From a virus: a stretch of 64,000 bases of DNA. The notes under the pieces were generated by a model. The model was given only the letters and a program-made list of their open reading frames with translations, ran no database searches and was not told the DNA's origin. The DNA is taken from the IMG/VR virus record IMGVR_UViG_3300045988_162215; one strand, written 5' to 3'. Position 1 is the stretch's first letter. Every line of letters begins with the position of its first letter. The position numbers and the translations under genes were made by a program. Of the stretch, positions 6,655-55,787 are shown in pieces.

Positions 6655-6660
6655 GAATCT

Positions 6661-6790: not shown

Positions 6791-6794
6791 AATA

Positions 6795-9752: not shown

Positions 9753-10958
9753 ATGGCTGTATCGGAAAAATGTACATGTATAAAATGCAAAAGAACACTT
9801 GCTGATACAAAATTTTATACTTATAAAGATGGTGCGAAATGTGAACTTTGTAAAGATTGCTTAACAATGCACATTGATAACTGGGATCCAGAAACATTCT
9901 TATGGATTCTTGAAAAATTTGATCTTCCTTATATTGAATCTGAATGGAATATTTTGAGAGATAGAGCTTATGCTAAAGATCCTCATAAGATGACTGGTTT
10001 AAGTGTAATTGGTAAATATATTTCTAAAATGAAATTAAAACAGTTTAAGAATTACACTTGGGCGGATTCAGATAGATTGAATCAAGAAGCTAACGTGCGG
10101 CTCCAGATGATGGGCGGTTCGGCTGGAACTGAAGAAGAACAAGAGCATATCAAAGAAGCTTATGAAAACGGAGAAATTTCAGAAGCTCAATATAAAACAT
10201 ATATTCAAACTACTGCGCCAGAACCTAGATTTGAGCAAATCAGTGGCCAGATTAAAGAAGTCGGAGGCGGCTTCCCGCAAGATGTAGAGTTAATAGATGT
10301 AGGTGCTGATTTAACAACAGAAGATAAGGTTTATCTTGCTATGAAATGGGGTAAGATGTATTCTGCTGCTGATTGGGTTGCACTTGAAAAGATGTATAAT
10401 GATTTTCAAAATTCATTTGATATTCAAGACGCGGCAACCGATAAGACTTTAATGTTTATTTGTAAGACTTCACTTAAAATGGATCAGGCTCTTGATATTG
10501 GAGATTTTGATACTTATCAAAAATTAAGTAAAGTCTATGATGCGCAAATGAAATCTAGTAAATTTACTGCGGCTCAGAATAAAGATGAAAAGACTAAACA
10601 GTTTGATGCTATTGGTGAATTAGTAGCTTATTGTGAAAAAACAAAAGGCGCAATTCCAGAGTATGTTATTGATACGCCTCTAGATATTGTAGATAAGGTA
10701 ATTGATGATTTGCAGACCTATACAAGAAATCTTATCACTTCAGATTCTGGTCTTGCTCAACAGATTGAAGAGTATATTAAGAAAAGAGAGCGTGCCGACG
10801 AACAGCGTGCTGCTAAAGAGGCTGCTAAAGCCAAAGGGCTTGATCATATTGAGCTTGATGATGACGCTACTGTTGAATATAAAGAAAGCGTTGCACAACA
10901 AATTGAAGAAGATAGAGCTCTTCTAGATTCTGAGTTAGGAGAGGAGGATGACTATTGA
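9753..10958 (+). CDS. hypothetical protein with N-terminal Cys4 zinc finger; possible terminase small subunit by position only
   Basis: SD aaggtga + ATG; lies directly upstream of the large terminase. Confidence 0.5.
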   Translation: MAVSEKCTCIKCKRTLADTKFYTYKDGAKCELCKDCLTMHIDNWDPETFLWILEKFDLPYIESEWNILRDRAYAKDPHKMTGLSVIGKYISKMKLKQFKNYTWADSDRLNQEANVRLQMMGGSAGTEEEQEHIKEAYENGEISEAQYKTYIQTTAPEPRFEQISGQIKEVGGGFPQDVELIDVGADLTTEDKVYLAMKWGKMYSAADWVALEKMYNDFQNSFDIQDAATDKTLMFICKTSLKMDQALDIGDFDTYQKLSKVYDAQMKSSKFTAAQNKDEKTKQFDAIGELVAYCEKTKGAIPEYVIDTPLDIVDKVIDDLQTYTRNLITSDSGLAQQIEEYIKKRERADEQRAAKEAAKAKGLDHIELDDDATVEYKESVAQQIEEDRALLDSELGEEDDY

Positions 10959-27900: not shown

Positions 27901-30900
27901 CTTTTATTGAATTAAATGATTCATTAACAGAATGGCAAGATAAAGTTGATTCATTAAAAGATTTAAGCAAATCAACAGAAGAATATACTAGAACAGTCCA
28001 AGAAGCAAATGAACAATTATTAAATTTAGTAGATACAAATGAAGAATTAGCTCAATATGTAACAAGAAATTCTGAAGGCTTGCTTGTATTAAAAGAAGGC
28101 TATGAAGATGTTCTTAATAAAATGAGTGAGTCTGCAAGTATGACAAATGCAACAGCTCAAAACTTAAAAATGCAAGCTAATCAAGCTACGCTTGATAAAC
28201 AAAAAGAAGATCTTATAGGTAATATAGAATTAAGTTATTTTAATAATGCTTATAATACAGAAGATCAAGTTAGTACACCAGATTATGAAGCAGCAGTAAA
28301 TACTCTTATTAGTAGTTATGAAAAAAATGGAAATTTAATTGGTAAAGATATTGATGAATTATCACGAGGAAATAAATCTTTAAAAGAAGCTTTAACAGAG
28401 AATAAACAAGAAATTATTGATTTAGCTAAAAGTATTGATGAAAATACAAAAGTTAATAAACTTTTATTAGATGAAGATGTTCGTTCTTTACTTGAACAAG
28501 ATAAAACATATGCTGATGCAAATGAGCAAGAAAAAACTATGATGGCTCAATCTGCAAAAAACATAGATATCTTTTCTAGTGATTATAGTGGATTTAAAGA
28601 AGAAGCAACTTTTGGTTATTATAAAGGTGGCGTTGGTGGTTATAGAGATAACAAAACGCATGATGCTTATAAAGAAGCTTTAGCAGCTCAGTGGGGTATT
28701 GATGCAAGTCAAATAGATGTAAAAGATAAAGTAGGTAAAGCGATTTATACAAATACCTTAACAGGAGAAACTGAAACAAAAACAGATAAGGAAGCAGCCG
28801 CTTTAGCAGTTGCATTTAATCAAGAGCTCCAGAAACAAGAAGCGTTAGAATCTGATAAGGACTTTGCAGTAAGTAAACAAGCAATTCTTGATTTTAGTGC
28901 AGAAGCTCAGAAACAGCTTGGTGGAGAAGAATCTTCGGCTTATAGTGCTTTTATGGAAATTGCATCAAAATCAATGGAAACACAAGGAAGAGGCTTTGAT
29001 GCATCCGATATTGATTTGTCAATGATTGACTATAGCGGATTCCAAAAAATAAATGAATTATTAGATAATGGCGAATTAGTTAGCTATTTAGATAAAATGG
29101 GCTTGTCCATTGAAGATTTTAATAATGCTCTAGCTGGTCTTACTATGGAGGCTCTTGAGCAACAAACAAAGTTAAGCTTTAAAGCAACATCTGATAAAAC
29201 TACTTCATTAAAAGATAATATTATATCTGGTGATGTTACATCTGAAAACATTAAAGAAAATGAAGATTATCAAGCTATAGCTGCTCAAATGGATAATATT
29301 ATAGCTCTTTATCCTGAAATGACAAGACAAGCAGAAATCTTTAATAATGAGAATCTTGTTGGAACCCAAGAGTATTTAGATGCATTAACTCAACTTCAGG
29401 ATAAAATGAATGAAGGTGTTCTTGAAGCATTACGTCAAGAAGCTAAAAAAGCAGGCGATGATTTTGAAAAGCTAGTTGCAGATAAAGATTTTGAAGTTAA
29501 AATGGGAGCAAACCCAGAAGAATTTGAATCTGCAATGGATAAAATTTTAGATGCTGATTATTCTGTTAATGTGGAAATTCATGCTCAAGCAGAAGAAGCT
29601 TTTGAAGATTTAGAGCAAGGTATTGAAGATATTCAAAATGCAACTGGCATGATTGGAGAAGGTTTTGTCGTAGCAGCTGATGATATAAGAGAGTTAAATA
29701 ATGCTTTTCCAGGTATTCTTCAAAATTGTGAATATTTACAAGATGGAACAATTAAGTTAAGCCAAGAATCTGTAAATGCTGCACAAGAAGCTGTTGCAAC
29801 CGAAGTTGCTACAGATACAGAAGGTACTATTGCAAAATTAAAAAATCAAGCAACTGAATTAAGGGGTAAACAAGCAACTTACCAAGGTATGGCAGATGCC
29901 GCAAGAAAGTTAGCTACAATGGAGATGGCTTCTGATGAGCAAAAAGCTCAATATAAAAAAGTTATCGAAAATGGAATAGCTGAAATTAGCGCACAATCAG
30001 ATACTAGCCAAACAGATGGGGCTAAAGCTGTTGCAGATAATTCTATTGACAACTCTAGAGCTGTAGCTATGAACTGGGGAAGTGCCTATTCAGATGCAGC
30101 TAATGCAGCAGTTCAATTTGCTCAAACTGCAATAGATGCTCAAGTTGCAGCAACAACTCCTGGTAGCAAAGGAGTAACAAACAAAGTTAAAGTAAATTAC
30201 TCTGGAGGCCAAAGTGGTGTTTCTACCTCTATCCAAGCAAACAAATTAAATGCAGATTTTGCAAGTGCTTCTACTGCGCAACAATATAATGCTTTAGCAG
30301 AGCAATATCAAGAAGCTGCTGATTCTTTAGGTGCGCAAGCTAATGATATTGAAGGTATGATAGTTGCTGCAGGAGCTTTGGGTGCAACAGGTATTAATAG
30401 TGCAAAAGATGCTGGGAAAAGTAAATCTAGCGGCAGTGGCGGTGGAGGTAGCTCTAAAGACCAAAAAGAGTTTACTGATGATACTGTAGATAGATATTGG
30501 TCTGTAAACAAAGCACTTGATGCTATCAATGATGAACTTGATAAACTTGAAGATAAGCAAAGCACAATGTCCGGAAAACAACTTATTGAAAGTTTACAAG
30601 AAGAAAATAAATTATTAGACCAGCAGATTGAAAAACAAAAGGAAAAACAGAAGCTTCAAATTCAAGAAGCAGAACAGATACAAGGTAGACTTAAATCTTT
30701 TGGGGTTACGTTTAAAGATACTGGTGAAATTACTAACTATGAAGCAGCATATCAAGCTCAAATAAATGCTTATAATGCAGCTGTTAGTGCATATAATTCA
30801 GGTGCTTTAGATGAAGCTGGTATGAGTATAGCAGAACAAAAGTACGAAGATTTTAAAGCTCAAATTGAAAGATATGATACTTTATTATATGATGAAATGA

Positions 30901-33616: not shown

Positions 33617-36600
33617 ATGCGGAGAGGACTTGACCTCTCCGCTATTTTTGGTTATAATAGAATAAGAATGAGATTTGATTTTTCATATTCTAATAAAGAA
33701 GAGAAAAAGGAGGAAAGAGTATTGGCAACAGACTACACTAAGTTTCAAGTTGATTCTACAGTAAAAGAGAATTTTACTAAAGCAGCTTCCAATACTTCAT
33801 TGAATAGGGGAGCAGACTATATCTCTAATTCAATTTATGATGCTGTAGCTTCAGTGTCAGAAAACGCGGTGTCCGCGGTTCAAAGTGATGTTTCCTATGA
33901 AATGGAAGTCATGGAGATAGTAGACCAAGGAACCGCAACTTATAGAGTAAAATATTTAGAGAATGATAAATTGCAAGCACATGCAAGTACGCCTAGTTAT
34001 TCAGTTGGTGATCATGTGTTAGTATTAGTGCCAAGGGGAGATTTTGATAATCCTCTTGTTATTTTAAATTCTGTAACACCTTCTGTTACAGTAGTTGGAG
34101 AAGACAAAACAACAGCAGAAACATTAAAAAGAATTGAAGTAAGTCAAAATCTTTTTAATAACTATAATTTAATTAAATTTGCATCTTATCAAGATGAAAC
34201 TATAGATATAAATGATATTGTTCCATATAATTTATCTGATTTGTTAAAAGGATATTTTGATAGTGGATATAATATCTTAAAATTAAATATGAATGTTAAA
34301 ACTTCTATCGCAAAAGAACAAAGAATTTCTGGTTCTTATGGAATTAAAGTTGAAATCCCAATCCGCAGAAAAAATGCAGATGGAATTTTAAAAGATGACA
34401 TTCAAGAATTTTATTTAGATTCTAAGGTTTTTAATGGTAATCCATATGAATTAACAAATTGGTCTAATCAAACTAATTATTTGGTTCTTAATTTTGGAGA
34501 CGAAATTATTTTTGATAAAAAGAGAAGCATTAAAGTTACTGCTTTTGTTGATGGATTCCCGCAAGATCCAGCTAAAACAGATAAGAGTGTTTGGGCTGAT
34601 ATTATATTAAAAGATATTCAATTAACTGTTTGCGAAGATATTGAAACAGTTGAAGGCGGATATAAAGTTGTACTGACAGCAGAAAATGGACCTTTCTTTG
34701 CTAACCAAGATGTTTCCTCTATTGAAGAAAAGAAAATCAATTTAAAGGTATTTTTAAATGGACTTGAAACTTCTTATGCTAAAATGCCTATTTATTGGTT
34801 TATTGAAGATCCAACAGTAAATGAAACAAGTAAATATTATCATCGTTCTGCGGGTGTGAATTGGAGATGTTTAAATTCTAGAACAGAGGTTTTAGGCGAA
34901 GCACAGAATGATAGTTCTTTTGTTTTTAATACATCTGCGGGTTCGGTGACGATCTCAAATCAAGATATCAAACACAAATCTAAAATTAGATGCTATGTTG
35001 GTACCAATGAAGGTCAATTATGGGTTTATGGAGAGCTAACTATAAGTAATTTATATTCTTTAATTAAAGAGGTTAATTTATATGCGGATAAAGAAAACAA
35101 TACTTATATTGAAAATATAGGTAGTGTAACTTTAACTTGTGAAGTAAATTATCCTAATTTATATAGTAATGTAGTTCGTGATGAAGAGTTAAATTACGTA
35201 TGGGAGCAAATTGACCAGCAAGGTCGAATCATCAGCCAAGACGATTTTTATAATATTGTAGCTTTAAATGATAAGAATATTACTGATGGCATCTATACTA
35301 CTAAGATTAGTTTTCCGGTAAGTTCATTAACATCAGACATGAATATTTTTAAAGTTTATGTTTATGCTAATAAAAAACAAGCATCGGGTTCAATTATTGC
35401 TTATCCTATTGAAACAAAACAAATTAGTATAAGAACAAAAGAAGGACAAGATTTTTTAGTTGTTTTAGACAATGCTAATGTAAATTATAATTATGATGCA
35501 GATGGCGATGCACCAGATAGTGATAATTATGATGGTTTGAGTTTACAGAAATTAGAGATTAAACCTGTTGAGTTTAGTATTATAAGCGCGGCTACCGGTG
35601 AAGAGATCTCTAAGGCTGAATACGATAGAGTTAGTTGGGTTTGGAAAGTTCCAATCAATAGTTTATTAAAACCTAATTTAGTTTATTTTGAAAGTATAAA
35701 TCAAGATAATACTTCTGCTATAACAAAAGATGATAATTATTATTATATACGCGGGAATGGAACTAATAGGAATCTACAATACAAGCTTGCTAGTCGCTAT
35801 AATGCGAAGTCCGCGCAGAGTCTTTCAAGTTTAACAATTACTTTTGGTAGTACAGTATTATATGAAGATGTCCCTATTAGATTCTCAAAAGATGGTGAGA
35901 ATGGAACTAATGGTACTAAATATACTGCTTTTGTTACCTATAAAATTGGAGATACAGAATATCGTTATGGAGATATTTATGTTGATGATAATGGTAATGA
36001 GCATCCTGTAAAAATGCGTTTTGTGGCAGTAGAAGATAATGATGGTACTATTGATTGGTATATTTATGATTTAGTTAGTAATACTTTAAAGAAGTGTTAT
36101 ACTTTATCAGGAAATAGTTATTCACATATTAAAGGTGATTTATATAGATTAAATATTAAAGTTTATAAAGATGGAGAAGAGATAAATACGAGTGCTTCCT
36201 CTCAAACAGGTCAAGCTAACGTGTCTTGGAATATTTTTGATAGTGGAGAAAGACAAGGTTTAGGATGGAAAGAAAATAAATATTTTTGTCCTTTTGCTAT
36301 ATCAGATAGTGATTCTAGCTCTTGTTATATTATTCCTACAAATAGTGATAAAAATAAATTAAGCCAATGGAATAATGAAAATAATATCCCTTATGTAATT
36401 GTACAAGCAAATATTTCATTATCTAATTTAAAGGCAACTGCGGATCAAAGCACAGATGATTTAAATAATATCTATAATAATGATTTACATATTTATTATG
36501 ATTATCCTATTGAAATTACTAGAATTAAAAAGCCACAAACAGATTTTGCTTCTGATGGAAGTTTTAAATCTTTTGTTCCATCACTCGAAGGTGGTTTCTA

Positions 36601-39600
36601 TAATGTATTATATACATCAGCAGGAAATAATCCTCAATACGATGATACAGAAAACTTTAGATGTGAGAGTAATTTAATTGGAGTAGATAGTAAAGAATGT
36701 AATTACTCTTGGAATGCAAACAGTAATATATTTTTAGATAAGAACATGACTGTGCATGAAATATCTGTCTCTGAAAATAATGAATGTCCTGTTGCAAAGC
36801 CGAATCCACTTTTCCAATCTGGAGACTTTTATAATTATATTAAAGTAAAAGTAGATATTGAGAATAAAATATTAAAAAATAAATTGAGTAAATCTACTTC
36901 TGAAAAAGAAGAATTACAAAAAGCTTTAGATAAGAATAATTTAATTTATGATAATTTAAAATTATTTTTAAAAGCATGTAATCTTTATCAGATAGAATAT
37001 TCACTTAAACAAAGTAAAGAAGAGCTTCAAAAAAGAAGTGAGTGTATAGATGCATTACAAAATATTATCAATGCAATAAATAGTTTAGATAGAGATGTTT
37101 CAGCTCAATCTAATATGAGTGAGTTAATTCTTTCTAATGGAGTTAAAATAGGTAGCTCTAAGAATGCAGATACTTTTATTTATAATGAATTAAATATTAT
37201 AAATAATATTATTATATCTGTTTTAAATACTAAGACAAGTGTTTATGGTATTGGATATAATGGTGGAAACGATATTGAATCTATATCTTCTTTATTTGAA
37301 GATGTTTTATCTAGAATTTCAACTTTATACGGTAATGGCATTAGAACTATTATTAGAAAAGATGTTAACGTTTTACAAAGCTCTATTGATGCTTTTAATA
37401 CTTTTAATCAAAGTATTAAAAATAAAACAGTTACAACTAATTATAGTGATTTTACTGCTAAATTAAAAAATATAGTTGAGAATGAAAATTTGGTTGAATT
37501 AGCAAAACAAGAAGAAGAATATCAAAAGCTATTAGACACATTAAATGGATATTATGTGAATATTACAGAGTATGTAAGTGGAAATGATGTGGAAAAAAAT
37601 TATGTTGATATTTGGAATAGTTTTGTTAATTTTAAACAGAAACTTTATTCATACGGTAGAGAAATTGAGTCTGATGAAATATTAGAGCAAAGAAATCAAT
37701 TAAGTCAACAATACGCTTTAGATTTAAGTGAGATTGAAGCTAATAAAGAAAATACTATTATTTCTAGTGAACCTATTATATCATATCAAAATAGAACATT
37801 GTCTGGAAAAAAATATTCAGAAGCTAAAGATATTGTTCAAAAAAGATATGAAGAGTTGGTAGCAGAAGATAATGATAGTTGCAGTAGAGAAATAGCTAAA
37901 ATTAAAACTAATAAAGATCTTACAGATGAACAAAAGAATGAACAAATTATTGTTATAAAACAACAATATGGTTTATTAAAGAAAGAAAAAACTTCTGAAA
38001 AAGATGCTGTATTAAAAACCTTAGCTGATGACGTTGAGAATACAAAAATAAAAAATATAAATACCATAACTGAGACATATAATACTAATTTATTAAAAAC
38101 ATATGAAAATAGCTATTTAGTTCCATTAGAATACTTACAAGAAAAATATAGTACAAAAACGTCAGAATTAAATACAGAAATTGAAAATAAAAATAAAGAA
38201 ATAGCTGATTTAAATACAGGTATTGAATCTAGTCAAGAATCAGTTGTTATTATTAGACCAATAAATATGAAATGTAATTCATATGAAATTCCGGGATTAA
38301 ATAACTGGGATGGTAAAAAATATTATTTATCTAATAATGGTGAATATATGTTTTGTCCTCAAATTGGTGCTGGTGTAAAAACAAATAATAACACTTTTAC
38401 AGGAATGTTCATGGGTGCTAGAACTTCGGTTAATAGAAGTATGGTTTCTGAAACTGAAAACGACCTTAATTTAAGAAATAAAGATATTGGTTTATTTGGA
38501 TACTCACAAGGTGTTCAATCTATCTTTTTAGATGCTAAAACAGGTTCCGCATTTATGGGAATGCCAGGACAAGGCCAGATTGTAATAAACCCAGACCAAG
38601 CTTTTGCTTCAATATATTCTGGAAATTACTATAAATATGATTCAAATAGAAAAGGCTATTATAGTAAAAAAGATGGTAGCTTTATTAGTGAAATTGATTT
38701 TAATAATTTAAAGACTCAAGAAGAAAGAGATAACTACTCAAGCGGGCAAGGTATGCTTATTAACTTAACTGATGGTGCTATAAAGAGTAGTTATTGGAAT
38801 GTTAATTCTGAAGGTAAGAGTACATTTACATCTGGAATTATCGGCGGATGGGAAATTGGCGCAAATACACTATCTAGTGTAATAAAAAATAACGCGCAGC
38901 TCGTGCTTGATAGTGGTAATTTAGTTGGCTTAACGGATGTTAATGGATCTGAAGGCCGCAGTCCTAAAATTTATTCTAGCGATAATACTAGAAAACCACA
39001 TGATACTTTAGACAGTATGGAACCTGGATTTTATCTTAGTTCAGATGGTTTAAGTATTGGTAATACATTTAAAGTAAGCAATCAACCCGCGACAGGATTA
39101 AGAACTCAAGGAACAGGTATTCTTGAAGTAGGAAATTTAAGTGGTGCGCATTGGACAATCGGACAAAATCTTGAAGGTACAAGTTTTATTGGTTATGGTG
39201 CTTCTTATTTAATTAGTAAGTCTTTTGTTAATGCGAATAATGACAATTCAGCTAATGATAGTGAAAGCGTATATTTAGGTACTGATGGTTTATCTTTTGG
39301 TAGAAACTTAGAATTGAAATCAAATGGATCATTAAAAGTAGGTCATTTTACAAAAAATGGTCTTTTAAGTAATTTTTTGGTATTAGAAGTTGATGAAGGA
39401 GATAGTTCAAATGCTTCTTTAAGATTTAATACTAATAGCATACATGATTTTAAGAATAATAGTCTTTACGTAGGAACCCAAGGAATTAGACTTGGAAAGC
39501 AGAGTTTAAAAGGTAATAATCGTGGAGTATTTGAAGTTGAGAATGATGGTACTCTATGGGCAACCGCAGGACACGTCGCTAATTGGACTCTTGATGAATA

Positions 39601-40885
39601 TCAATTACTATCAACAAACACGGTTGTTGTAGATGGTGTTACAAGACCAGGATTAGTGTTAGATAGTAGAAAAGGCTATGTTGCTTTTATTAAAGAAGGT
39701 TTTGATAAAACAACAAAAGGCTTTTATATAGGTAATGAAGGTTTATCTTTGGGCGATTCATTCTGGGTTGATAGAACTGGACAGCTTTCTGCGACAAAAG
39801 GAAATATTGCTAATTGGACTATTGATAAAAATTCTTTATATGTAAAAACTTCTGCAACAGATGGTTCATTAGTTAAACTGTTTGATATTCATCCTACAAC
39901 GTCTGGTGGATATATTGCTTATAATACAACAGGTTGGAATACAGGTAGATTGTTAAATAATATTGAAGGATGCTTCTATTTAGGTACAAACGGAATTTCA
40001 CTTGGAGAAGGTCCTGCCGCACCTTTTAGAGTTAATAATAAAGGTTATTTGTGGTCTACCTCTGGAGTTATTGGTGGATGGACTATTAGCAACACAAGCC
40101 TTAAAGGTGGTAATGTTACACTCAACAGTGATGGTTCTCTTATAGGTTCTAAATGGCGTTTTAGTAAAGAAGGTGTTCTTACTTGTACTGATGCCGTTAT
40201 TGGTGGTGTTCATTTTAAGACTGGTTCGGGAGAAGCAAATTGGTCAGGTGGACAAATGACATCTGGAAAAATTGGTTCATGGAATATTGGTATTAATGCA
40301 ATAACATCTGATAATGGAAATGTTAATTTTGAAACAGATGGAGATTTTAAGATTGTAACAGATGGAAATCATGGAATTGAAGGCACTGGAACAAAAATTG
40401 ACATAAAAGGAATTATAGTATCAATTAATGATGGTGCTATTGGTGTAGATAAAAGTAAAGCTCATTTTGGATTAGAAGCTGGTTCTGGTTTAACTATCAG
40501 TCAAGGAAATATGAGTACAACTGGATTAAGTAATGGTATAAATCTAAATGCTGGTGGTGGAGATTGTTCTTTTGGAGGAGGAAGTAGCCTATCTTTAACT
40601 TCTACTGGAACAACAGAAGTAAAAGGAAATAAAGTAAAATTAACAGGAGAATTAGAATTACCTTCTACTATTAAAGTTGGAAATCAGACATTTGAAGAGT
40701 ATATTCAAAAAGCTATTGAAAAAGCATTAAATAATCCTTCAGCAGGAATTAAAGGCTCTTTAAACGCTATAATCAATAAATTATTATCTGGAAAACAGCT
40801 TTCTATTAGTACTACTTCTAGTAAGACTGGAAGCTCAGAAGGACATAGCCATTCATATACAAAAGTAACTGGTGTTCATTTTTAA
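33617..40885 (+). CDS. giant tail protein (2422 aa; distal tail / fibre-like with tandem beta-repeats)
   Basis: About 8 tandem repeats with motif G.I(G/A).W(T/N)I..N.L in the C-terminal third (IGGWEIGANTL, AHWTIGQNL, ANWTLDEYQL, ANWTIDKNSL, IGGWTISNTSL, IGSWNIGINAI) plus a central coiled coil; start codon uncertain. Confidence 0.6.
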   Translation: MRRGLDLSAIFGYNRIRMRFDFSYSNKEEKKEERVLATDYTKFQVDSTVKENFTKAASNTSLNRGADYISNSIYDAVASVSENAVSAVQSDVSYEMEVMEIVDQGTATYRVKYLENDKLQAHASTPSYSVGDHVLVLVPRGDFDNPLVILNSVTPSVTVVGEDKTTAETLKRIEVSQNLFNNYNLIKFASYQDETIDINDIVPYNLSDLLKGYFDSGYNILKLNMNVKTSIAKEQRISGSYGIKVEIPIRRKNADGILKDDIQEFYLDSKVFNGNPYELTNWSNQTNYLVLNFGDEIIFDKKRSIKVTAFVDGFPQDPAKTDKSVWADIILKDIQLTVCEDIETVEGGYKVVLTAENGPFFANQDVSSIEEKKINLKVFLNGLETSYAKMPIYWFIEDPTVNETSKYYHRSAGVNWRCLNSRTEVLGEAQNDSSFVFNTSAGSVTISNQDIKHKSKIRCYVGTNEGQLWVYGELTISNLYSLIKEVNLYADKENNTYIENIGSVTLTCEVNYPNLYSNVVRDEELNYVWEQIDQQGRIISQDDFYNIVALNDKNITDGIYTTKISFPVSSLTSDMNIFKVYVYANKKQASGSIIAYPIETKQISIRTKEGQDFLVVLDNANVNYNYDADGDAPDSDNYDGLSLQKLEIKPVEFSIISAATGEEISKAEYDRVSWVWKVPINSLLKPNLVYFESINQDNTSAITKDDNYYYIRGNGTNRNLQYKLASRYNAKSAQSLSSLTITFGSTVLYEDVPIRFSKDGENGTNGTKYTAFVTYKIGDTEYRYGDIYVDDNGNEHPVKMRFVAVEDNDGTIDWYIYDLVSNTLKKCYTLSGNSYSHIKGDLYRLNIKVYKDGEEINTSASSQTGQANVSWNIFDSGERQGLGWKENKYFCPFAISDSDSSSCYIIPTNSDKNKLSQWNNENNIPYVIVQANISLSNLKATADQSTDDLNNIYNNDLHIYYDYPIEITRIKKPQTDFASDGSFKSFVPSLEGGFYNVLYTSAGNNPQYDDTENFRCESNLIGVDSKECNYSWNANSNIFLDKNMTVHEISVSENNECPVAKPNPLFQSGDFYNYIKVKVDIENKILKNKLSKSTSEKEELQKALDKNNLIYDNLKLFLKACNLYQIEYSLKQSKEELQKRSECIDALQNIINAINSLDRDVSAQSNMSELILSNGVKIGSSKNADTFIYNELNIINNIIISVLNTKTSVYGIGYNGGNDIESISSLFEDVLSRISTLYGNGIRTIIRKDVNVLQSSIDAFNTFNQSIKNKTVTTNYSDFTAKLKNIVENENLVELAKQEEEYQKLLDTLNGYYVNITEYVSGNDVEKNYVDIWNSFVNFKQKLYSYGREIESDEILEQRNQLSQQYALDLSEIEANKENTIISSEPIISYQNRTLSGKKYSEAKDIVQKRYEELVAEDNDSCSREIAKIKTNKDLTDEQKNEQIIVIKQQYGLLKKEKTSEKDAVLKTLADDVENTKIKNINTITETYNTNLLKTYENSYLVPLEYLQEKYSTKTSELNTEIENKNKEIADLNTGIESSQESVVIIRPINMKCNSYEIPGLNNWDGKKYYLSNNGEYMFCPQIGAGVKTNNNTFTGMFMGARTSVNRSMVSETENDLNLRNKDIGLFGYSQGVQSIFLDAKTGSAFMGMPGQGQIVINPDQAFASIYSGNYYKYDSNRKGYYSKKDGSFISEIDFNNLKTQEERDNYSSGQGMLINLTDGAIKSSYWNVNSEGKSTFTSGIIGGWEIGANTLSSVIKNNAQLVLDSGNLVGLTDVNGSEGRSPKIYSSDNTRKPHDTLDSMEPGFYLSSDGLSIGNTFKVSNQPATGLRTQGTGILEVGNLSGAHWTIGQNLEGTSFIGYGASYLISKSFVNANNDNSANDSESVYLGTDGLSFGRNLELKSNGSLKVGHFTKNGLLSNFLVLEVDEGDSSNASLRFNTNSIHDFKNNSLYVGTQGIRLGKQSLKGNNRGVFEVENDGTLWATAGHVANWTLDEYQLLSTNTVVVDGVTRPGLVLDSRKGYVAFIKEGFDKTTKGFYIGNEGLSLGDSFWVDRTGQLSATKGNIANWTIDKNSLYVKTSATDGSLVKLFDIHPTTSGGYIAYNTTGWNTGRLLNNIEGCFYLGTNGISLGEGPAAPFRVNNKGYLWSTSGVIGGWTISNTSLKGGNVTLNSDGSLIGSKWRFSKEGVLTCTDAVIGGVHFKTGSGEANWSGGQMTSGKIGSWNIGINAITSDNGNVNFETDGDFKIVTDGNHGIEGTGTKIDIKGIIVSINDGAIGVDKSKAHFGLEAGSGLTISQGNMSTTGLSNGINLNAGGGDCSFGGGSSLSLTSTGTTEVKGNKVKLTGELELPSTIKVGNQTFEEYIQKAIEKALNNPSAGIKGSLNAIINKLLSGKQLSISTTSSKTGSSEGHSHSYTKVTGVHF

Positions 40886-45959: not shown

Positions 45960-47606
45960 ATGGAGGAAGTTTCACAGGTAAAACTAGAAGGCTCTCTTTA
46001 TAATGTTAGAGACGAGCAAGCTAGAAAAACAATGATAAGTCGAACAAACCCTGTTATTGAAGGCTCGCTTAGTGTCAATAGAAAAGAAGAAACTGCGGTT
46101 GGCAATAATAGTGTTACTTTGAATACTAATAATAGCGCGACCGGGGAAGGCGCTACAGCGACTGGATTTGAGACTAACGCGTCTGGAGATTATTCTTTTA
46201 CTCAGAATTTTCAAACTATAGCTTCAGGCAGTGGATCTCATGCAGAGGGATATAAATGTGAAGCTAGTGGAGATTATTCTCATGCAGAAGGATGGATTAC
46301 AAAGTCTAAAGAAGTAGCTTCACATAGTGAAGGATATTTAACCAATACAACTGGGCTTTATGCACACGCGGAAGGGTCATCAACAATAGCAAGTGGACAA
46401 AGTTCGCATACAGAAGGTAGCGGCGCGGTCGCCGCTGGTCACTACTCACATGCTGAGGGTATAGATACTAAAGTAGGCGAAACCGCAGCAAATGGTACAG
46501 TAAGTGGAGAAACAACAGGTAGCCAAGAGATAATCAAAAAAGATGAATTAAATCTTGCAATTCTTGGCGGACACGCGGAAGGTGTACAAACTAAAGTTCT
46601 TAGCTCAGGCTGCCATGCAGAGGGCGTTGAAACTCAGGCTGGTGGAGTCGTTGAAGTGGGCGATGCCGCGAAGCAACAATTAGGATGTCATGCAGAAGGT
46701 TATAGAACTATAGCTGGATATGATTATCAGACTGTTTGTGGTTTTTATAATGATAATAAAAATACAACAATTTTTGAAGTTGGTAATGGCGTTATGGAAC
46801 AAAGAAATAATGCCTTTGAAGTTTATAAGAATGGTGATGCTAAGATTCATGGTAATCTTTATATAGATGTCGGCAAAGGTGAATCTGGTCAAATGAATTT
46901 AAGAGATTTATTAAAAGATATTAAACAAAATAACTTTTATATCTCTTATCATAATAATGAAACATTTGATGCATTACATGAACCAATTATGGATACTTTA
47001 ACCGCGGATAGTGATTTATCAAACTTAACCGCAGGTGGATTTGATTTAGACAATTTAGTAGGAATAACTAGAGCAGATATTTATAAATTATTTGATGGAA
47101 AAGAAGATACTTCAATTTCTTTACCTGATTCTAATTTTAGTTTAATATTTAACTTTAATGAGGAAGTTCAAATAGATATGGTAAAATTTGTGGTGTCTAG
47201 TACGGGTAATGGTATTCCAGTTTTACAAACTTGGAATCCAGACCTTGGGATCTGGGTGGATGCCGCAGATGCTTTTATAAATACCTCTAAAGTTACGACT
47301 ATTGTTAAATATGTAAACCACATTCCTACATCTAAGTTTAGATTAACTTCACATTCTGATTCTGCTTTTAATTTATATGATTTACAAATTTATGGTACTT
47401 CAATTAAGGGTAGAGTTTATAAGAAGGTAGAAGATAGATTAAGTTCTTATGATTTAGATGTTCAATTTTATGATACAGAAGTTTCTGAATCTGATTATAA
47501 AGCTAATTTATCTTACTATAATACAGACAATGATGATAGTGCATATAATGCATTGGTTAGTTTATATAATACAACAATAAAGACCGAGGAAGGAGAAAGT
47601 AACTAA
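45960..47606 (+). CDS. tail fibre protein with SHAEG repeats
   Basis: Repeats SHAEGY / SHAEGW / AHAEGS / SHTEGS / GHAEGV / CHAEGV / CHAEGY and a C-terminal ...FEVGNG...NAFEVYKNGDAKIHGNLYIDVG segment typical of fibre repeat proteins. Confidence 0.55.
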   Translation: MEEVSQVKLEGSLYNVRDEQARKTMISRTNPVIEGSLSVNRKEETAVGNNSVTLNTNNSATGEGATATGFETNASGDYSFTQNFQTIASGSGSHAEGYKCEASGDYSHAEGWITKSKEVASHSEGYLTNTTGLYAHAEGSSTIASGQSSHTEGSGAVAAGHYSHAEGIDTKVGETAANGTVSGETTGSQEIIKKDELNLAILGGHAEGVQTKVLSSGCHAEGVETQAGGVVEVGDAAKQQLGCHAEGYRTIAGYDYQTVCGFYNDNKNTTIFEVGNGVMEQRNNAFEVYKNGDAKIHGNLYIDVGKGESGQMNLRDLLKDIKQNNFYISYHNNETFDALHEPIMDTLTADSDLSNLTAGGFDLDNLVGITRADIYKLFDGKEDTSISLPDSNFSLIFNFNEEVQIDMVKFVVSSTGNGIPVLQTWNPDLGIWVDAADAFINTSKVTTIVKYVNHIPTSKFRLTSHSDSAFNLYDLQIYGTSIKGRVYKKVEDRLSSYDLDVQFYDTEVSESDYKANLSYYNTDNDDSAYNALVSLYNTTIKTEEGESN

Positions 47607-48283
47607 TGTCTATTTTTAACAAAACTATAAGCTGTACAATAAATAATTTACCGAAAGAGTTTGAGACTCTTGTTACACAATGGGCAACAAATAAAAATGG
47701 TAATATGGCTTGTACAGTTAGTGAAACTACTTGTTCTTTGACTATTGATGAAGATGTATGTACTTTTTCTTTTCCAACTACTGGAAACTATAGTGGCTCA
47801 TATCAATGGAGCATTACAATTTGTGATGCTCCAGACTATGAGTGTTGTACTATTTTAAATAGAGAAAGTTTTAGTGGCATTGATGGTAACAATACAAGCA
47901 GTGCAGACCAAAGATATAATTTAATTATTTGTAAATACAATGGTGCTTTAAAATGCTTAAATTCTGTGTCTGTAGATGGTTTTAGTTTAAGTGATTTATT
48001 TAATATACCAAAAGGTAGATATAATATTTCTTCTATAAATGATGTTTATATTACAAGAGCATTAGTTAATTCTAATTTAGCATCAGCTAATATAATTAAT
48101 ATTTCAGATAATTTATATTTATCTACAAATTTAATAAATGTTGGTGTAAAAACAATAGTTAAAAGTAAAGAAGATACAAGTAAGCAATTTATAAATATTG
48201 GTGGAGTTTTTTATTTGCCATATTCTTCAAGTATTTTAACCATTAGTGCTAAAGAACCAAGTGCGGAATCTACAACTGAATAG
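47606..48283 (+). CDS. RBP-family paralog (short form, 225 aa)
   Basis: Shares the DNLYLSTNL...KQFINIGGVFYLPYS module with the three downstream genes. Confidence 0.5.
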   Translation: MSIFNKTISCTINNLPKEFETLVTQWATNKNGNMACTVSETTCSLTIDEDVCTFSFPTTGNYSGSYQWSITICDAPDYECCTILNRESFSGIDGNNTSSADQRYNLIICKYNGALKCLNSVSVDGFSLSDLFNIPKGRYNISSINDVYITRALVNSNLASANIINISDNLYLSTNLINVGVKTIVKSKEDTSKQFINIGGVFYLPYSSSILTISAKEPSAESTTE

Positions 48284-48313
48284 GGGCTTTTAAAATAAGC
48301 CCCATTTATTTTG
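48283..48313 (+). terminator. intrinsic terminator between the short and long RBP paralogs
   Basis: ggggcttttaaaataagccccatttatttt. Confidence 0.65.
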
Positions 48314-48332
48314 AGAAAAAGGAGGAGAAGAA

Positions 48333-49820
48333 TTGGCTTTATTTTATTTCACTATAGGAGTGTCAGATAATACATTTTCATTAAAAGAAAAACTAGAAAA
48401 AATTAGATATGAAGGAGCAAATATTTCATATACTATTATATCTTCATCACATGTAATTTTAAAAATAAATGAAATTGAATTAAATGTTCAATATGAACTA
48501 TCTAAATCTTCAATAGCACAATATTTTTGGTATTTATGTGATGCTTATAATCAAGAGAGTCTAATTATTTTATGTGATTCTCCAAATGTAAATGAGAATG
48601 GTAAAACAGGCACTTTTGGTCTTTCTACATATAATAGAGCATATTTTAGATATAAAGAAAAAATGATTGAAGTACCTTTAAAAGAAGATACTTTTTCAGA
48701 TAGATTTAATTTAATAAAAGGTAATTTTAATACTTTTGATGATGAAACTATAGGCAACAATCTTATTACAAGCAAATGTACTTTTAATAGTGGTAGTAAT
48801 ATTGATAATGGAGAAATTATTTCTATAGATAATTTATATGTTTCAGCTGGTTTACAAGATATAGATTTTAGAACTATTATAAAAGATTCTAAAGGAAATG
48901 CTTTTATAAATATTGGTGGAATTTTTTATGCTAATAATGTTGATTATATAGTTGCAGATAGTACATGTCCAAATTTGATTCTTGTACCAGATGGTAGAAT
49001 CAAATATGAATGGAATGCTAATACCGAAATTACAAATGATATTTGGTTAAATACTGAAAAAACAGCAAGTATTAAGCTTGGTACGAATTATAGATATGAG
49101 GTTAAAAATAACAGCTTTTTTATGAAACAAGCTGGCCATTCTACCTCTATAAAATTATCTTTGCCTGATGACGTAAATGGTTTTACTTTTTATTCTATTC
49201 TTAGATGTTATAATGTACATGGTGTAAATGATTATTCATATGAATTACCAGGTTTGGAAATAGGAAATAATGAGCAAGAGCGTTGTGTAATTGCTCCTCG
49301 GCATGGAGAAAGATATTCTTCAAGGAATATTCTTAATAACAATGATGACAAATTAGGTTTGTTTACTGCTGAAAAAACGAATATTAAAAACACTAGTTCT
49401 AACTATCCTCGTTTTATTTTTCCTTCTTATGATGAAATAAATCACTTTGTTAATGACCAATATTTTTATACTTTTGGTTTAGATATTTCAAATATTCCTT
49501 TATTACTTTATGTTTTTAGATGTTCAAAAAGTAAAAATTTATCTTACAATAATCCTCCAAGGTTTTCTGTTTTTGTTAAAGATAAAAAATTTTATGATAA
49601 TTTATTAACTCCTTATTCAATAAATGAACCAGAGAAATCTTCAATAATTGATTTAAAAAATATAAATATTGTCACAAGTAGTCAAACAATAGGAATACCA
49701 AAAACCTATGGAGAAATTAAATATATAGGTCTTCAACCAAGTGGAGATATAAGTGATGAAGAAATACTTGAAAATATGCAATATTTAACAAAAAAGTTTA
49801 AATTAGATAAGGAGGTATAA
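48333..49820 (+). CDS. RBP-like paralog 1 (495 aa)
   Basis: TTG start after SD aaggagg; conserved N-terminus, (Y/F)W(Y/F)LCD..(Y/N)(Q/E).(L/I)I.L(C/Y)(D/N)S, KCTFN.G.NI..GE...DNLYVS....FINIGGIFY, conserved C-terminal tail SDEEILENMQYLTKKF. Confidence 0.55.
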   Translation: MALFYFTIGVSDNTFSLKEKLEKIRYEGANISYTIISSSHVILKINEIELNVQYELSKSSIAQYFWYLCDAYNQESLIILCDSPNVNENGKTGTFGLSTYNRAYFRYKEKMIEVPLKEDTFSDRFNLIKGNFNTFDDETIGNNLITSKCTFNSGSNIDNGEIISIDNLYVSAGLQDIDFRTIIKDSKGNAFINIGGIFYANNVDYIVADSTCPNLILVPDGRIKYEWNANTEITNDIWLNTEKTASIKLGTNYRYEVKNNSFFMKQAGHSTSIKLSLPDDVNGFTFYSILRCYNVHGVNDYSYELPGLEIGNNEQERCVIAPRHGERYSSRNILNNNDDKLGLFTAEKTNIKNTSSNYPRFIFPSYDEINHFVNDQYFYTFGLDISNIPLLLYVFRCSKSKNLSYNNPPRFSVFVKDKKFYDNLLTPYSINEPEKSSIIDLKNINIVTSSQTIGIPKTYGEIKYIGLQPSGDISDEEILENMQYLTKKFKLDKEV

Positions 49821-49823
49821 TAG

Positions 49824-51170
49824 ATGGGCTTATATAAATTTAGTATCGCGGCAGCCGCGTCTCCTAGTGATATTGAAGCTAAGATTACTAGTGTCAGAGG
49901 ACAAGGTGCGAATATTTACTTACACAGCATTGTAGATATAGGTAACTTAAATTTATCAATAAATAATAAAAATGTTACAATAAATTATGATTTGATTGGA
50001 ACAAAACAAAATAGTTTATTTAATTGGTATATTTGTGATACAGTTGGATATGAAACTATTATTATTCTATATAACTCAGGAACTGAATCAGATAGCACAT
50101 TTGGTTTAGCTAACTATAACCGAATTTATTTCAATGTGAAGAACCAACTGGTGTCAAACCCAAAGATCTCAGCGACGCTAGCCGCGCAATTCAATGTTCT
50201 TAGAGGACGATTTGATTCATATGAATCAGATAGTGGCGATGATGATGTAATTATGTTAACTAAGTGTGTCTATAATAATGGATCTAATATCGAAACAGGA
50301 GAAGCTATTGTTACAGATAATCTTTATGTTTCAACTAATTTAAGGTCAACTTCATTTAAGACTATTGTTAAAGATGAAGATGGCAAGCAATTTATAAATG
50401 TTGGTGGAATTTTTTATTTACCTTATAGTGAAGAAATTATTTATCCTAGCTGGAGTCCAAATCAATTAGTCTTGCCAGCTGGAGCCGTAGACTATGAATG
50501 GAATCCCGCAACAGCAATTATAACAGAAAATGTTAGATGGTATGATAAAACCAATATCAATTACCTTACATACTATGTGAGTTCTGGTCCAGCTTTTTTC
50601 CCATATTATCAAAAAAATAAAGAAGATTTTTCTTTAGACATAAGAGGTGGTACGACCAGTTCTACTTATGGAATGACTCTTAAAGATAATGGCGATAAAA
50701 ATAGAGTTTATTATATTGTTGGAAAACCATTAAATAGCCCTAACACAAATACAGGATTTTTATATTGTTATGATACAAGTAGCGCCATTCATTGGCCTAA
50801 TACCTCCAATCCTGATGGTATTATGATGAGAAGAGAAGATCAAACAATAAAAATAAAATATAGAGATCGCAATGTTAGCCTTTTATACCAATATGTAGAT
50901 TATCCAGAAGAAAAATTGATTGTTTTTGCTATAAAAGCATCTCCACCATCTTTTTATGATAGCACCTATCTTTCTGAATTAAGTTGTTATTTTAATGGAA
51001 ATAAAAAAATAGAATGTTCTTTTCAAGATAATATTGTACTTAAACCAGAAAGAGGTATTTCTCTTGCATGGATGTCTTTAAAATTTTTTGCAATAGTAGA
51101 TCACGATCAGACATCTGAAGAAATAATTAAAACTTCTCAATTACTTATGGATAAATTTGATATACATTAA
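49824..51170 (+). CDS. RBP-like paralog 2 (448 aa)
   Basis: SD aaggagg + ATG; same conserved N-terminus and FINVGGIFYLPYS module; C-terminal tail TSEEIIKTSQLLMDKF. Confidence 0.55.
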   Translation: MGLYKFSIAAAASPSDIEAKITSVRGQGANIYLHSIVDIGNLNLSINNKNVTINYDLIGTKQNSLFNWYICDTVGYETIIILYNSGTESDSTFGLANYNRIYFNVKNQLVSNPKISATLAAQFNVLRGRFDSYESDSGDDDVIMLTKCVYNNGSNIETGEAIVTDNLYVSTNLRSTSFKTIVKDEDGKQFINVGGIFYLPYSEEIIYPSWSPNQLVLPAGAVDYEWNPATAIITENVRWYDKTNINYLTYYVSSGPAFFPYYQKNKEDFSLDIRGGTTSSTYGMTLKDNGDKNRVYYIVGKPLNSPNTNTGFLYCYDTSSAIHWPNTSNPDGIMMRREDQTIKIKYRDRNVSLLYQYVDYPEEKLIVFAIKASPPSFYDSTYLSELSCYFNGNKKIECSFQDNIVLKPERGISLAWMSLKFFAIVDHDQTSEEIIKTSQLLMDKFDIH

Positions 51171-51183
51171 AGGAGGTTAAAAT

Positions 51184-52776
51184 ATGGCTTTATTTCAATT
51201 TAGTACATCAATTAGTACAACAGTTTCAGAATTAGCTGATAAATTAACCTCTTGGCAAGATAGCGGGGCTAGTATATCAGAAATTGCAATTTCTAATATC
51301 AATGATATAAGCTTTTTAATAAATGATAAATATTGTAATGTTAAATATAACATGTCTTCTTCTCAAAATGCAAACTATTATTGGTTTTTATGTGATAGTG
51401 TTGGATATGAAACTTTAATTGTTTTATGTGATTCTCCTATTGTTAATGAAAATGGATATAAAGGAAGTCTTGGGAATGCATTGTATAATGCAATTTATTT
51501 TTTACATAATGGTAGATTAGTAAGAAATCCTCAAATTGATGAACCTATATGTAGTCAATTTAATATTCCTAATGGACCTGTTGTTGAAAGTTCTGATAGA
51601 GTTATATTTACCAAATGTACTTTTAATAATGGTGTTAATATAGAAGTAGGCTCAAATGAGATAACTGATAAGTTATATGTATCAACAAATTTAGTTTCTG
51701 CTGGTTTTTTAACTGAAATTACAGGATCGGGGCAAAAATTTATAAATATTGGTGGAATATTTTATTTACCTTATAATAATGTTGTTTTAAGTTTGAGTAA
51801 ATATAAAAAAAGAAGTATTTTAAAAAATGCTGAAATAGAATTATGGGCAGGATGTTATGAGGATAATGAAAAAATATATGATAGAAAAGAAGAAAATACT
51901 TTTTATAAAAATATTCGTAATAATATAAAAATAGTTCCAGATGGTAATATGGAAATGGGATATATTCAGTTACCAAGTGGAGATTCTTTATATTTAAAAA
52001 GTGATACACCTTTCTTTTTTAATAAAACTATTTATATGGTAGTTTATAATAAAAATTCTTTTATCCATAGTAATGTTGGTAGTAATAGAAGTGCTTATTC
52101 AAATAATATAATTGCTTGTGGAGAAGAAATCTATCATTCTACTTCTACTAGTAAGTATCCTCCTTATTTTCCTCGATGTTTTAGTTTAAATACAGTTGAT
52201 AAGCCTATCTTTGGAACGTCTCAATATTCAGGTCATGAAAAAAATGGATATTTATTATTGTCTTGGAAAAGTAAATCTTATGGTGCTTTAGGAACTCAAG
52301 TTGTTAGTAAATTAAATCAACATATATTAGATTATTATAATAATGAAAATAGAGAATATTATTATGATTATGGTAATAATATAATGTCAATGACTTGGCA
52401 AGTTATGAAGATGACTCCTAAAAAATATATATATGTTATAAAAACGCCTTTAAAAGAAGAGTACCCATATACTGCTTACATAAATAAAAATAAAATTAAT
52501 TCTTCTGAAAGTTTTTTCTTAAATAAAGATGAGGTAAATTCTTTTATTGGTAGTGGTTATTTATTAAAATCTTATTATTTAATGATAGGGGGTAATCAGT
52601 ATCATACTTTAAATACAAACAATCCTGGTTCTAATGACGACAGCGATAAACAAATAGATACTCCAGAATTAAAAATAGATTATTTTGGAATAGTAGAAGA
52701 ATCCCAGTCTGATGAAGAAATACAAAAAAATATTCAATATTTAGCTAAAAAATTTAATGTAGATCTAAATGATTAA
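51184..52776 (+). CDS. RBP-like paralog 3 (530 aa)
   Basis: SD aaggagg + ATG; same conserved modules; C-terminal tail SDEEIQKNIQYLAKKF; terminator 52776..52802 downstream. Confidence 0.55.
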   Translation: MALFQFSTSISTTVSELADKLTSWQDSGASISEIAISNINDISFLINDKYCNVKYNMSSSQNANYYWFLCDSVGYETLIVLCDSPIVNENGYKGSLGNALYNAIYFLHNGRLVRNPQIDEPICSQFNIPNGPVVESSDRVIFTKCTFNNGVNIEVGSNEITDKLYVSTNLVSAGFLTEITGSGQKFINIGGIFYLPYNNVVLSLSKYKKRSILKNAEIELWAGCYEDNEKIYDRKEENTFYKNIRNNIKIVPDGNMEMGYIQLPSGDSLYLKSDTPFFFNKTIYMVVYNKNSFIHSNVGSNRSAYSNNIIACGEEIYHSTSTSKYPPYFPRCFSLNTVDKPIFGTSQYSGHEKNGYLLLSWKSKSYGALGTQVVSKLNQHILDYYNNENREYYYDYGNNIMSMTWQVMKMTPKKYIYVIKTPLKEEYPYTAYINKNKINSSESFFLNKDEVNSFIGSGYLLKSYYLMIGGNQYHTLNTNNPGSNDDSDKQIDTPELKIDYFGIVEESQSDEEIQKNIQYLAKKFNVDLND

Positions 52777-52802
52777 AGCCCTCTCAGGAGGGCTCTTTTT
52801 TA
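52776..52802 (+). terminator. intrinsic terminator after RBP paralog 3
   Basis: aagccctctcaggagggctcttttttatt. Confidence 0.7.
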
Positions 52803-53659: not shown

Positions 53660-54448
53660 ATGTTCAATGGAAACACTAGTGGCTATTCATTAGCCGATAT
53701 CGCAGCCGCAACAGGCGGAAACGATAGAAACAATGGATGGGGAGAAGATTGTTGGTGGATCGTTCTTTTCATCTTAATTCTTGCCGGTGGAAATAACTGG
53801 GGTAATGGATTATTTGGTGGCAGAGATGCAACATCTTCTGGTATTACTGATGGTTATATCCTTACAACAGATTTTGCTAACATCGAAAGAAAGATTGATG
53901 GCGTAAACAATGGTATTTGTGATGGCTTTTATGCTATGAATACAGGTATGCTTAATGGTTTTAACTCATTAGGCAATGCTATTCAGGGTGCTCAGGCTGA
54001 TGTAACTGCTGCAATAAATGCAGATACAATAGCAAATATGCAGAATACAAATGCTATCACTAACCAACTTACTGGTATTGGTACACAGATCGCTCAATGC
54101 TGCTGCGACCAGAGATACGAGAGCGCAACTCAGTTTGCTAACTTAAACTATAATATTGCAGATCAGAGCTGTCAGACAAGACGTACTATTGCTGATTCTT
54201 CAAGAGATATTATAGCTAATCAAGACGCTAATACAAGAAGTATCTTAGACTTCTTAACACAAGACAAGATTGCTACTCTTACAGCTGAGAATCAGTCACT
54301 TAAATTTGCTGCTTCACAAGCTGCACAGAACACATATCTTGTAAATGCACTTAGCCCAGCTCCAGTTCCATCATATCAAGTTCCAAATCCTTATACAGGA
54401 ATGTATGGATATAGAGCATGCTGCAATACTTGCGGATGTACTGTATAG
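53660..54448 (+). CDS. Gly/Asn-rich membrane protein with C-terminal Cys clusters (262 aa)
   Basis: SD aaaggagg; TM helix WWIVLFILILAGG flanked by GGN/GNG repeats; Cys clusters QCCCDQRY, CQTRR, ACCNTCGCTV. Confidence 0.5.
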   Translation: MFNGNTSGYSLADIAAATGGNDRNNGWGEDCWWIVLFILILAGGNNWGNGLFGGRDATSSGITDGYILTTDFANIERKIDGVNNGICDGFYAMNTGMLNGFNSLGNAIQGAQADVTAAINADTIANMQNTNAITNQLTGIGTQIAQCCCDQRYESATQFANLNYNIADQSCQTRRTIADSSRDIIANQDANTRSILDFLTQDKIATLTAENQSLKFAASQAAQNTYLVNALSPAPVPSYQVPNPYTGMYGYRACCNTCGCTV

Positions 54449-55447: not shown

Positions 55448-55771
55448 TTGTTTACAATAAATGGAGAAACATGGTATATAGTATTTGTTCCTTCTAATTC
55501 TTTTGTTCTTTATAGAAGTGATGGTTCTCTTAGTATCGCCATGTGTGATGACGATACTAAGACAATATATATTAGTAATCAAATAAAAGGTAATTTTCTA
55601 AGAAAAGTCCTTTGCCATGAGATAACTCATGCGGCAATGTTCTCTTATAATGTTAACCTAACTGTAGACCAAGAAGAGCTATTAGCTGACCTTGTAGCTA
55701 CTTATGGCTACGAAATTATTTACATTACAAATGAGATATTTAGAAAATTAAAATGGGAGTCTTATTATTAA
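55448..55771 (+). CDS. mini HExxH zinc-metallopeptidase-like protein (107 aa)
   Basis: Motif CHEITHAAM in the translation; TTG start abutting the upstream stop (alternative ATG at MCDDD); bidirectional terminator 55754..55787 overlaps the 3' end. Confidence 0.45.
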   Translation: MFTINGETWYIVFVPSNSFVLYRSDGSLSIAMCDDDTKTIYISNQIKGNFLRKVLCHEITHAAMFSYNVNLTVDQEELLADLVATYGYEIIYITNEIFRKLKWESYY

Positions 55772-55787
55772 GACTCCCATATTTTTA
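55754..55787. terminator. bidirectional terminator at the convergence of the structural (+) and replication (-) modules
   Basis: gggagtcttattattaagactcccatattttt; T-runs on both strands. Confidence 0.7.

Follow-up and report, generated by a model that had tools for sequence, protein, structure and literature searches.

Four tandem genes closing the tail module

The subject of this study is an array of four tandem genes, termed A to D, in the virus record IMGVR_UViG_3300045988_162215 of IMG/VR; the whole 64,000-nucleotide stretch analysed is referred to as the window. An initial annotation, made from the sequence, had described the genes as receptor-binding-protein-like paralogs with a shared modular organisation, and all four open reading frames (ORFs), their positions and their plus-strand orientation were confirmed (Table 1). 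The start codon of A overlaps the stop codon of the upstream 548-amino-acid (aa) gene (TAATG), whilst B and C lie 3 nucleotides apart and C and D 13, a strong ribosome-binding site (Shine-Dalgarno sequence) preceding both C and D. It had also been proposed that A is a truncated copy closed off by a terminator; its stop codon does lie just 20 residues past the FINIGGVFY motif and the terminator-like hairpin that follows has a folding energy of -14.9 kcal/mol (z = -3.2). The stem of this hairpin is invariant in five genomes, the same five in which the Shine-Dalgarno sequence and TTG start of B are kept, and it may act as an attenuator.

Table 1. Features of the array and its borders in the window
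Feature	Position	Strand	Description
Upstream 548-aa protein	45960-47606	+	YadA/trimeric-autotransporter-head-like repeats (SHAEG-type); 95-99% identical in relatives
Gene A	47606-48283	+	225 aa, ATG start; short paralog consisting of the N-terminal module alone, without variable domain or C-terminal tail
Terminator-like hairpin between A and B	48283-48313	+	GGGGCTT-loop-AAGCCCC and T-rich tail; hairpin proper 48283-48303
Gene B	48333-49820	+	495 aa, TTG start
B, constant N-terminal module	48333-49076	+	aa 1-248; identity 62-100% among 53 alleles
B, hypervariable domain	49077-49712	+	~aa 249-460; mean allele identity 52%, minimum 22%
B, conserved C-terminal tail and stop	49713-49820	+	ends SDEEILENMQYLTKKFKLDKEV
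Gene C	49824-51170	+	448 aa
C, constant N-terminal module	49824-50534	+	aa 1-237
C, hypervariable domain	50535-51083	+	~aa 238-420, from the conservation profile
C, conserved C-terminal tail and stop	51084-51170	+	ends TSEEIIKTSQLLMDKFDIH
Gene D	51184-52776	+	530 aa
D, constant N-terminal module	51184-51846	+	aa 1-221
D, hypervariable domain	51847-52653	+	~aa 222-490; predicted ConA-like lectin/glucanase beta-sandwich
D, conserved C-terminal tail and stop	52654-52776	+	strand 496-504, helix 510-524, ends SDEEIQKNIQYLAKKFNVDLND; pLDDT 71-91
Canonical intrinsic terminator ending the A-D unit	52777-52802	+	AGCCCTC-loop-GAGGGCT followed by TCTTTTTTATT

An N-terminal module of ~205-240 aa (N-module) is common to all four proteins. 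The four-way alignment contains 30 invariant columns, mostly within the first ~215 residues, and the constant module of the family carries the signature W-x4-CD-x4-E … LYVS … FINIGGIFY. In BLASTP comparisons B and C were 36% identical over 236 aa (E 4e-48), B and D 41% over 200 aa (E 1e-37) and C and D 35% over 250 aa (E 3e-41), with A matching the other three at 28-37% identity (E 2e-11 to 1e-16). As judged from these alignments the paralogy is far above chance level, and the shared sequence blocks that had been reported are real. Two of them proved less general than claimed: the MALF block at the N-terminus is not found in C, which starts MGLYKF, or in A, which starts MSIFNK, and the FINIGG…FYLPY block is not found in B, which has FYANN. 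Nor does divergence begin at that motif, since the conservation profile extends the constant part beyond it to ~aa 220-250. A C-terminal tail of ~35 aa is common to B, C and D, as had been proposed, with weak significance by BLASTP (1.8e-4 for B and D, 2.7e-4 for C and D) and a probability of 93-94% over 30-33 columns by hhalign. The intervening regions had been said to diverge completely. This was right in part only, because the variable domains of B and C are remote homologs (hhalign probability 97.4% over 225 columns), whereas that of D has no sequence-level relation to either.

The window comes from the ~143-kb genome of a large, uncultured phage of siphovirus-like (long-tailed), gut-type character, with a G+C content of 25-37%, and an NCBI/IMG contig of 143,455 bp encodes identical proteins under the label 'hypothetical protein'. 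The late module is a plus-strand block from 8.6 to 55.8 kb encoding a sigma-like factor, the large terminase, the portal and the head and tail proteins. Its tail genes run from the tape measure (2871 aa, 24993-33608, with matches to PF10145 and to tape-measure PHROGs) through genes for a 2422-aa protein, a 630-aa protein and a 746-aa tail protein (the last matching phrog_1887 and DUF5048) and the 548-aa protein to A-D and the terminator, and the same order is found in relatives. A-D come last in the late tail operon. The 548-aa protein gave a weak Pfam YadA_head match and matched PDB sequences of the adhesins BpaC and CbpF at E 0.006-0.05, and from its repeats is likely to be a conserved tail fibre or adhesin.

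Variation confined to three slots

Six related loci were available for comparison, L001, L002, L003 and L005 together with L010 and L011 from IMG/VR, on contigs of ~122-147 kb. The arrangement of one short and three long genes was kept in all seven genomes examined, the window included, and the N-modules were specific to their slot. Homologs of D and B were found in metagenomic contigs only, several of them 135-147 kb long. When the proteins were compared with those of L001, L002, L003 and L005, which have full flanks, and of two partial contigs, the neighbouring proteins and that of gene A were 92-100% identical to those of the window, and B, C and D 51-63%. The DNA comparison with the six relatives revealed three discrete holes of 44-65% identity within flanks of 91-99%, and these holes coincide with the variable domains. 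Within each slot the identity of orthologs was 70-93% over the first ~220-250 residues, fell to 14-60% (mostly 20-50%) over the next ~180-270 residues that make up the variable domain, and rose again to 52-80% over the final ~35.

The alleles proved mosaic. Many pairs combined N-modules of at least 95% identity with variable domains of 12-49%, among them pairs of gene C alleles whose variable domains were 22-27% identical. A few pairs showed the reverse, e.g. an N-module identity of 63% with a variable domain identity of 87-90%. As the mosaics run both ways, N-module and variable domain must have recombined independently. When 102 full-length alleles were clustered all against all, each variable-domain cluster fell in one slot only, with 54 clustered alleles for B, 14 for C and two unrelated classes of 19 and 15 for D. 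The array therefore consists of three independently evolving cassettes and not of a shuffling pool. The initial annotation had offered a reservoir for recombinational host-range switching as one of two options; switching among the paralogs is not supported, the clusters being strictly slot-specific, and neither invertible nor template repeats were found in the window.

Two metagenomic proteins depart from the slot pattern. P0060 (170 aa, on a 618-bp contig) has a B-type N-terminus fused to an A-type C-terminus, and P0107 is B-like except for its first six residues, which are the C-type MGLYKF; they could be rare inter-slot recombinants or assembly chimeras.

Two known mechanisms for diversifying adhesins were considered and rejected. 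For a diversity-generating retroelement (DGR) of the Mtd-like kind, no second copy or template repeat of any cassette segment was present in the 64-kb window, and the divergence, with insertions and deletions and identities of 12-50% across whole domains, is unlike adenine-specific DGR mutagenesis. An invertible switch of the Mu Gin or P1 Cin type was discounted because no convincing inverted repeats or invertase were found, the inverted matches in the window being only short, AT-rich and 70-89% complementary, and because the genes lie on one strand with their own ribosome-binding sites.

Predicted folds and a proposed role in host recognition

The AlphaFold2 monomer model of D opens with a confident N-terminal alpha/beta domain (residues 1-118, pLDDT 70-90) and ends in a beta-sandwich followed by a well-predicted terminal strand and helix. 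When compared with viral models by Foldseek it matched many phage 'ConA-like lectin/glucanase' and LamG proteins at a probability of 1.00, and the sandwich has the predicted jelly-roll topology of the ConA-like superfamily, a likeness established for D. The top fold matches were a sialidase lectin domain, domain 4 of AbnA, the lectin module of PilC, BoNT Hc and CBM40, with sequence identities of 6-14% throughout.

From these observations we infer that A-D are probably peripheral tail-tip proteins in which the N-module docks, while the variable heads of B, C and D bind, and possibly cleave, glycans and set the host range, all three being displayed together. Two marks of the adhesin class are present, a position in the distal tail gene module and the pairing of a conserved N-terminal part with an exchangeable, fast-evolving C-terminal part. 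The earlier suggestion of a host-range cassette, with a constant anchor and swapped heads, draws support from the tail-end position, the confined hypervariability, the mosaicism and the lectin-type fold predicted for D. The N-module of ~205-240 aa would be the constant docking and assembly part of a tail-tip (baseplate) protein, and that its version differs from one long paralog to the next suggests a separate virion site for each. The hypervariable domains presented by B, C and D would all be different, that of D having a ConA-like lectin/glucanase fold, and would bind or possibly cleave host cell-surface glycans, and the short conserved strand-helix tail would close each long protein.

Such a virion would be polyvalent, with three different adhesin heads per particle. 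This was the other option of the initial annotation and is the one favoured here: the retention of three long slots in all seven genomes (though one slot is frameshifted in L011), the slot-specific N-modules and the co-directional, closely spaced genes all argue for co-display. Changes of host range would come about by allelic replacement of the variable domain inside a slot, with recombination making use of the conserved N-module that precedes it and of the conserved tail or following gene beyond it. Gene A would encode a headless paralog serving as a conserved structural partner or adaptor, translationally coupled to the 548-aa fibre gene and separated from B-D by the hairpin.

Several observations weigh against this interpretation. 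Confidence in the D model is moderate (mean pLDDT 62), and residues 119-204 have a pLDDT of ~30 though their sequence is the most conserved; they may fold only within an oligomer. ConA-like folds are very widespread and not peculiar to phage adhesins. No sequence link was found between A-D and any known receptor-binding protein (RBP), carbohydrate-binding module (CBM) or baseplate family. In L011 (11483-13050) slot D holds two ORFs, one of 434 aa and one of 83 aa that carries the conserved C-terminal tail, a split that reflects either a dispensable slot disrupted by a frameshift or an assembly error.

The same virion location would also suit variable domains that are depolymerases of the GH16, PL7, PL14 or PL18 type, cutting capsule or cell-wall polysaccharide as tailspikes do. 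This appears unlikely given that the top fold matches of D are non-catalytic lectin or CBM-type domains, that no glycoside hydrolase or polysaccharide lyase Pfam family was found in the 67 alleles scanned and that no catalytic motif could be assigned. The Pfam scan of these alleles returned scattered noise only, with no Laminin_G, Glyco_hydro_16, Alginate_lyase2 or similar family at E<=1, and none in the window proteins either.

It is quite improbable that A-D are non-virion late accessory proteins engaged in an arms race, whether surface or secreted lectin-like proteins or agents of superinfection exclusion or anti-defence, in which case the hypervariability would mirror host counter-measures instead of receptor choice. 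Hypervariable islands do mark anti-defence and exclusion loci too, the proteins have no sequence homology to a known structural protein and the genes stand at the extreme end of the operon. That the long paralogs are alternatives, one per particle or condition, giving mixed monovalent virions, is very improbable: the conserved hairpin ahead of gene B, together with its TTG start, suggests that expression is uneven along the array, and one genome has a broken D slot, but there is no invertase, inverted-repeat switch or template repeat, B, C and D sit on one strand 3-13 nucleotides apart with a strong Shine-Dalgarno sequence each, as is typical of co-expression, and their N-modules have stayed separate over a long divergence, which favours three docking sites.

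Distribution of the family and comparison with known systems

The family is rare in the databases. A-D had no match in PHROGs, Pfam, NCBIfam or PADLOC, the last of these including no defence-system match, and a profile search of PDB sequences gave 0 matches at E<=10. None of 50,697 phage records was matched by tblastn of D or by megablast of the 16-kb region, and no relative was found in 185,579 bacterial and archaeal genomes, so a prophage origin was not seen. IMG/VR yielded two loci only. An exhaustive search of 1.84 billion representative proteins with a hidden Markov model of the N-module returned 18 matches, 10 of them strong and all from this lineage, and ~12 of the representatives were clear relatives (E<=1e-10 or by eye). 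No signal-peptide-like sequence was apparent by eye at the N-termini of A-D.

Distant relatives of full length were found only on the 6.8-kb contig L007, where two adjacent genes with a 4-nucleotide overlap (3079-5951) encode a short protein of 276 aa and a long one of 681 aa. The pair lies directly downstream of a homolog of the 746-aa protein (42% identical) and upstream of homologs of the genes that follow D. Because the position is the same, 'short + long' looks like the ancestral unit, of which the window lineage appears from these sequences to have triplicated the long gene. In L007 two small ORFs (142 and 96 aa) replace the 548-aa repeat protein, the 142-aa ORF having weak matches to tail-collar-fibre PHROGs.

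The portal protein of the window shares 40% identity with its counterpart in phage phAss-1 and ~32% with the portals of Enterococcus phages of ~140 kb. Members of the phAss-1 group are phages of the gut, have tape measures of >3000 aa and are considered by the authors who described them to be siphoviruses of Clostridia-type hosts (PMC10607447). The equivalent locus of phAss-1 was uninformative for comparison, its annotation being fragmented by TAG recoding. Stop-codon recoding, an idea taken from the phAss-1 paper, was examined in the region 1-6800 of the window and rejected, as no reassignment of TAG, TGA or TAA lengthened the ORFs and no tRNA genes were present in the window. That region, on the minus strand, has a negative GC skew and small ORFs only, mostly <110 aa, and resembles an early-gene region of small proteins.

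Other features of the late module were recorded. The sigma-factor-like protein at its head (phrog_5767, 8649-9734, plus strand) has a C-terminal segment matching HNH and endonuclease VII zinc-ribbon families. The large terminase (10955-12694, plus strand) matches phrog_15503 with residues 13-230 and phrog_24618 with residues 349-577, which suggests that other phages of the group carry this gene in split or interrupted form. The 2422-aa ORF (33617-40885, plus strand) directly follows the tape measure gene, where Dit or Tal would be expected, and had no match in Pfam, PHROGs or PDB sequences. Downstream of the array, on the plus strand, are a 262-aa protein (53660-54448; phrog_16490) with a hydrophobic N-proximal segment, a Cys-rich QCCCDQ motif and a C-terminal CCNTCGCTV, and a 107-aa protein (55448-55771) with an HExxH motif (LCHEITHAAM); both are 95-100% conserved across relatives. 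A perfect palindrome with a 12-bp stem (55753-55780), which scores as a terminator on both strands, marks the junction of the convergent late (plus) and replication (minus) modules.

The host range of uncultured gut phages is mostly unreadable from sequence because their adhesins are annotated as 'hypothetical proteins'. If the proposed role is correct, the locus defines such an unannotated adhesin family, with a recognisable constant module and with three hypervariable cassettes whose borders are sharp against a genome background of 91-99% identity. It would then offer a natural experiment for tying adhesin alleles to host strains in metagenomes and a ready scaffold on which binding heads could be exchanged.

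Of the known systems, the branched tailspike complex of the Ackermannviridae, with the tailspike proteins (TSPs) TSP1-4 of CBA120 (PMC8825819, PMC7506556, PMC11414711), has a plan similar to the one proposed here: four tandem genes, N-terminal parts for assembly and anchoring, C-terminal parts of differing glycan specificity, a polyvalent particle and changes of host range by C-terminal exchange. CBA120 is, however, a myovirus infecting Gram-negative hosts, with TSPs that act as trimeric depolymerases of beta-helix fold and carry XD-type N-domains, whereas the window array has one headless gene, a ConA-like sandwich as its modelled head and a globular alpha/beta N-module unrelated to theirs. 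Neither a trimeric right-handed beta-helix catalytic domain nor XD-type N-domains were found in A-D, and searches of PDB sequences and PHROGs gave no similarity of the CBA120 type.

A second parallel is provided by the multi-adhesin baseplates of siphophages of Gram-positive hosts, including the dual-RBP lactococcal 936 phages (PMC6315561), Tuc2009/TP901-1 with BppU-BppA-BppL (PMC4742702) and the S. thermophilus phages with CBM-decorated Dit and Tal (PMC7533335). Virions of the dual-RBP 936 phage Phi4.2 were shown to contain both RBPs (PMC6315561). These siphophage tail-tip modules encode several carbohydrate-binding proteins downstream of Dit and Tal, in which a conserved 'shoulder' at the N-terminus is joined to a C-terminal 'head' that can be exchanged, a layout like that proposed for A-D. 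Those RBPs are homotrimers of 170-400 aa with a shoulder-neck-head organisation and have no sequence match to the window proteins, and the window array differs from theirs in its three long paralogs, its headless paralog and the conserved tail that follows the head at the C-terminus. ConA-like or LamG domains occur in other phage structural proteins, both among BFVD entries and in the tailspike gp15 of the cyanopodophage Pan3 (PDB 9vyh), a likeness again established for D.

A possible resemblance of the N-module, of which A consists, is to gp47 and gp48 of phage JBD30 (PDB 8rk3), paralogous 'tail-fibre-forming proteins' of similar fold (PMC11445458). Three gp47/gp48 heterodimers form each lateral 'tail fibre' arm of this siphophage baseplate, and the arm touches the receptor (PMC11445458). 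The likeness is suggestive and is one of predicted fold only; sequence homology was looked for and rejected, hhalign giving a probability of 0.2% to both proteins and identities being 5-8%. In JBD30 the two genes are placed between those for the tape measure and Dit, whereas A-D follow the tail-tip genes, and gp47 and gp48 have no appended variable lectin domain and serve a phage of a Gram-negative host whose receptor is the type IV pilus.

By analogy A-D could build a heteromeric, non-fibrous baseplate arm on the same principle, with A-B, A-C and A-D heterodimers each bearing a different lectin head, though this is rather unlikely. Each arm would hold three heterodimers, the same number as in JBD30, and an A-rich stoichiometry of ~3:1:1:1 would be set in part by the conserved hairpin that follows A and by the TTG start codon of B. 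The single pair of L007 would then be the ancestral homotypic version and the window lineage a subfunctionalised, tri-specific one. The pairing of short with long proteins and the slot-specific N-modules are circumstantial evidence for hetero-oligomerisation of paralogs. If true, this would extend to a distant lineage an architecture so far seen in one Pseudomonas phage and would show duplication of an arm subunit yielding a polyvalent device.

By sequence or fold A-D are outside the CBA120, 936 and Tuc2009/TP901-1 families. The strategy proposed for them as co-displayed tail-tip adhesins, that of tandem proteins with a constant N-terminus and exchangeable heads, is already known; what is novel is an unannotated family that combines a headless conserved paralog, a globular N-module that may resemble gp47/gp48 in predicted fold and a conserved C-terminal tail after the head.

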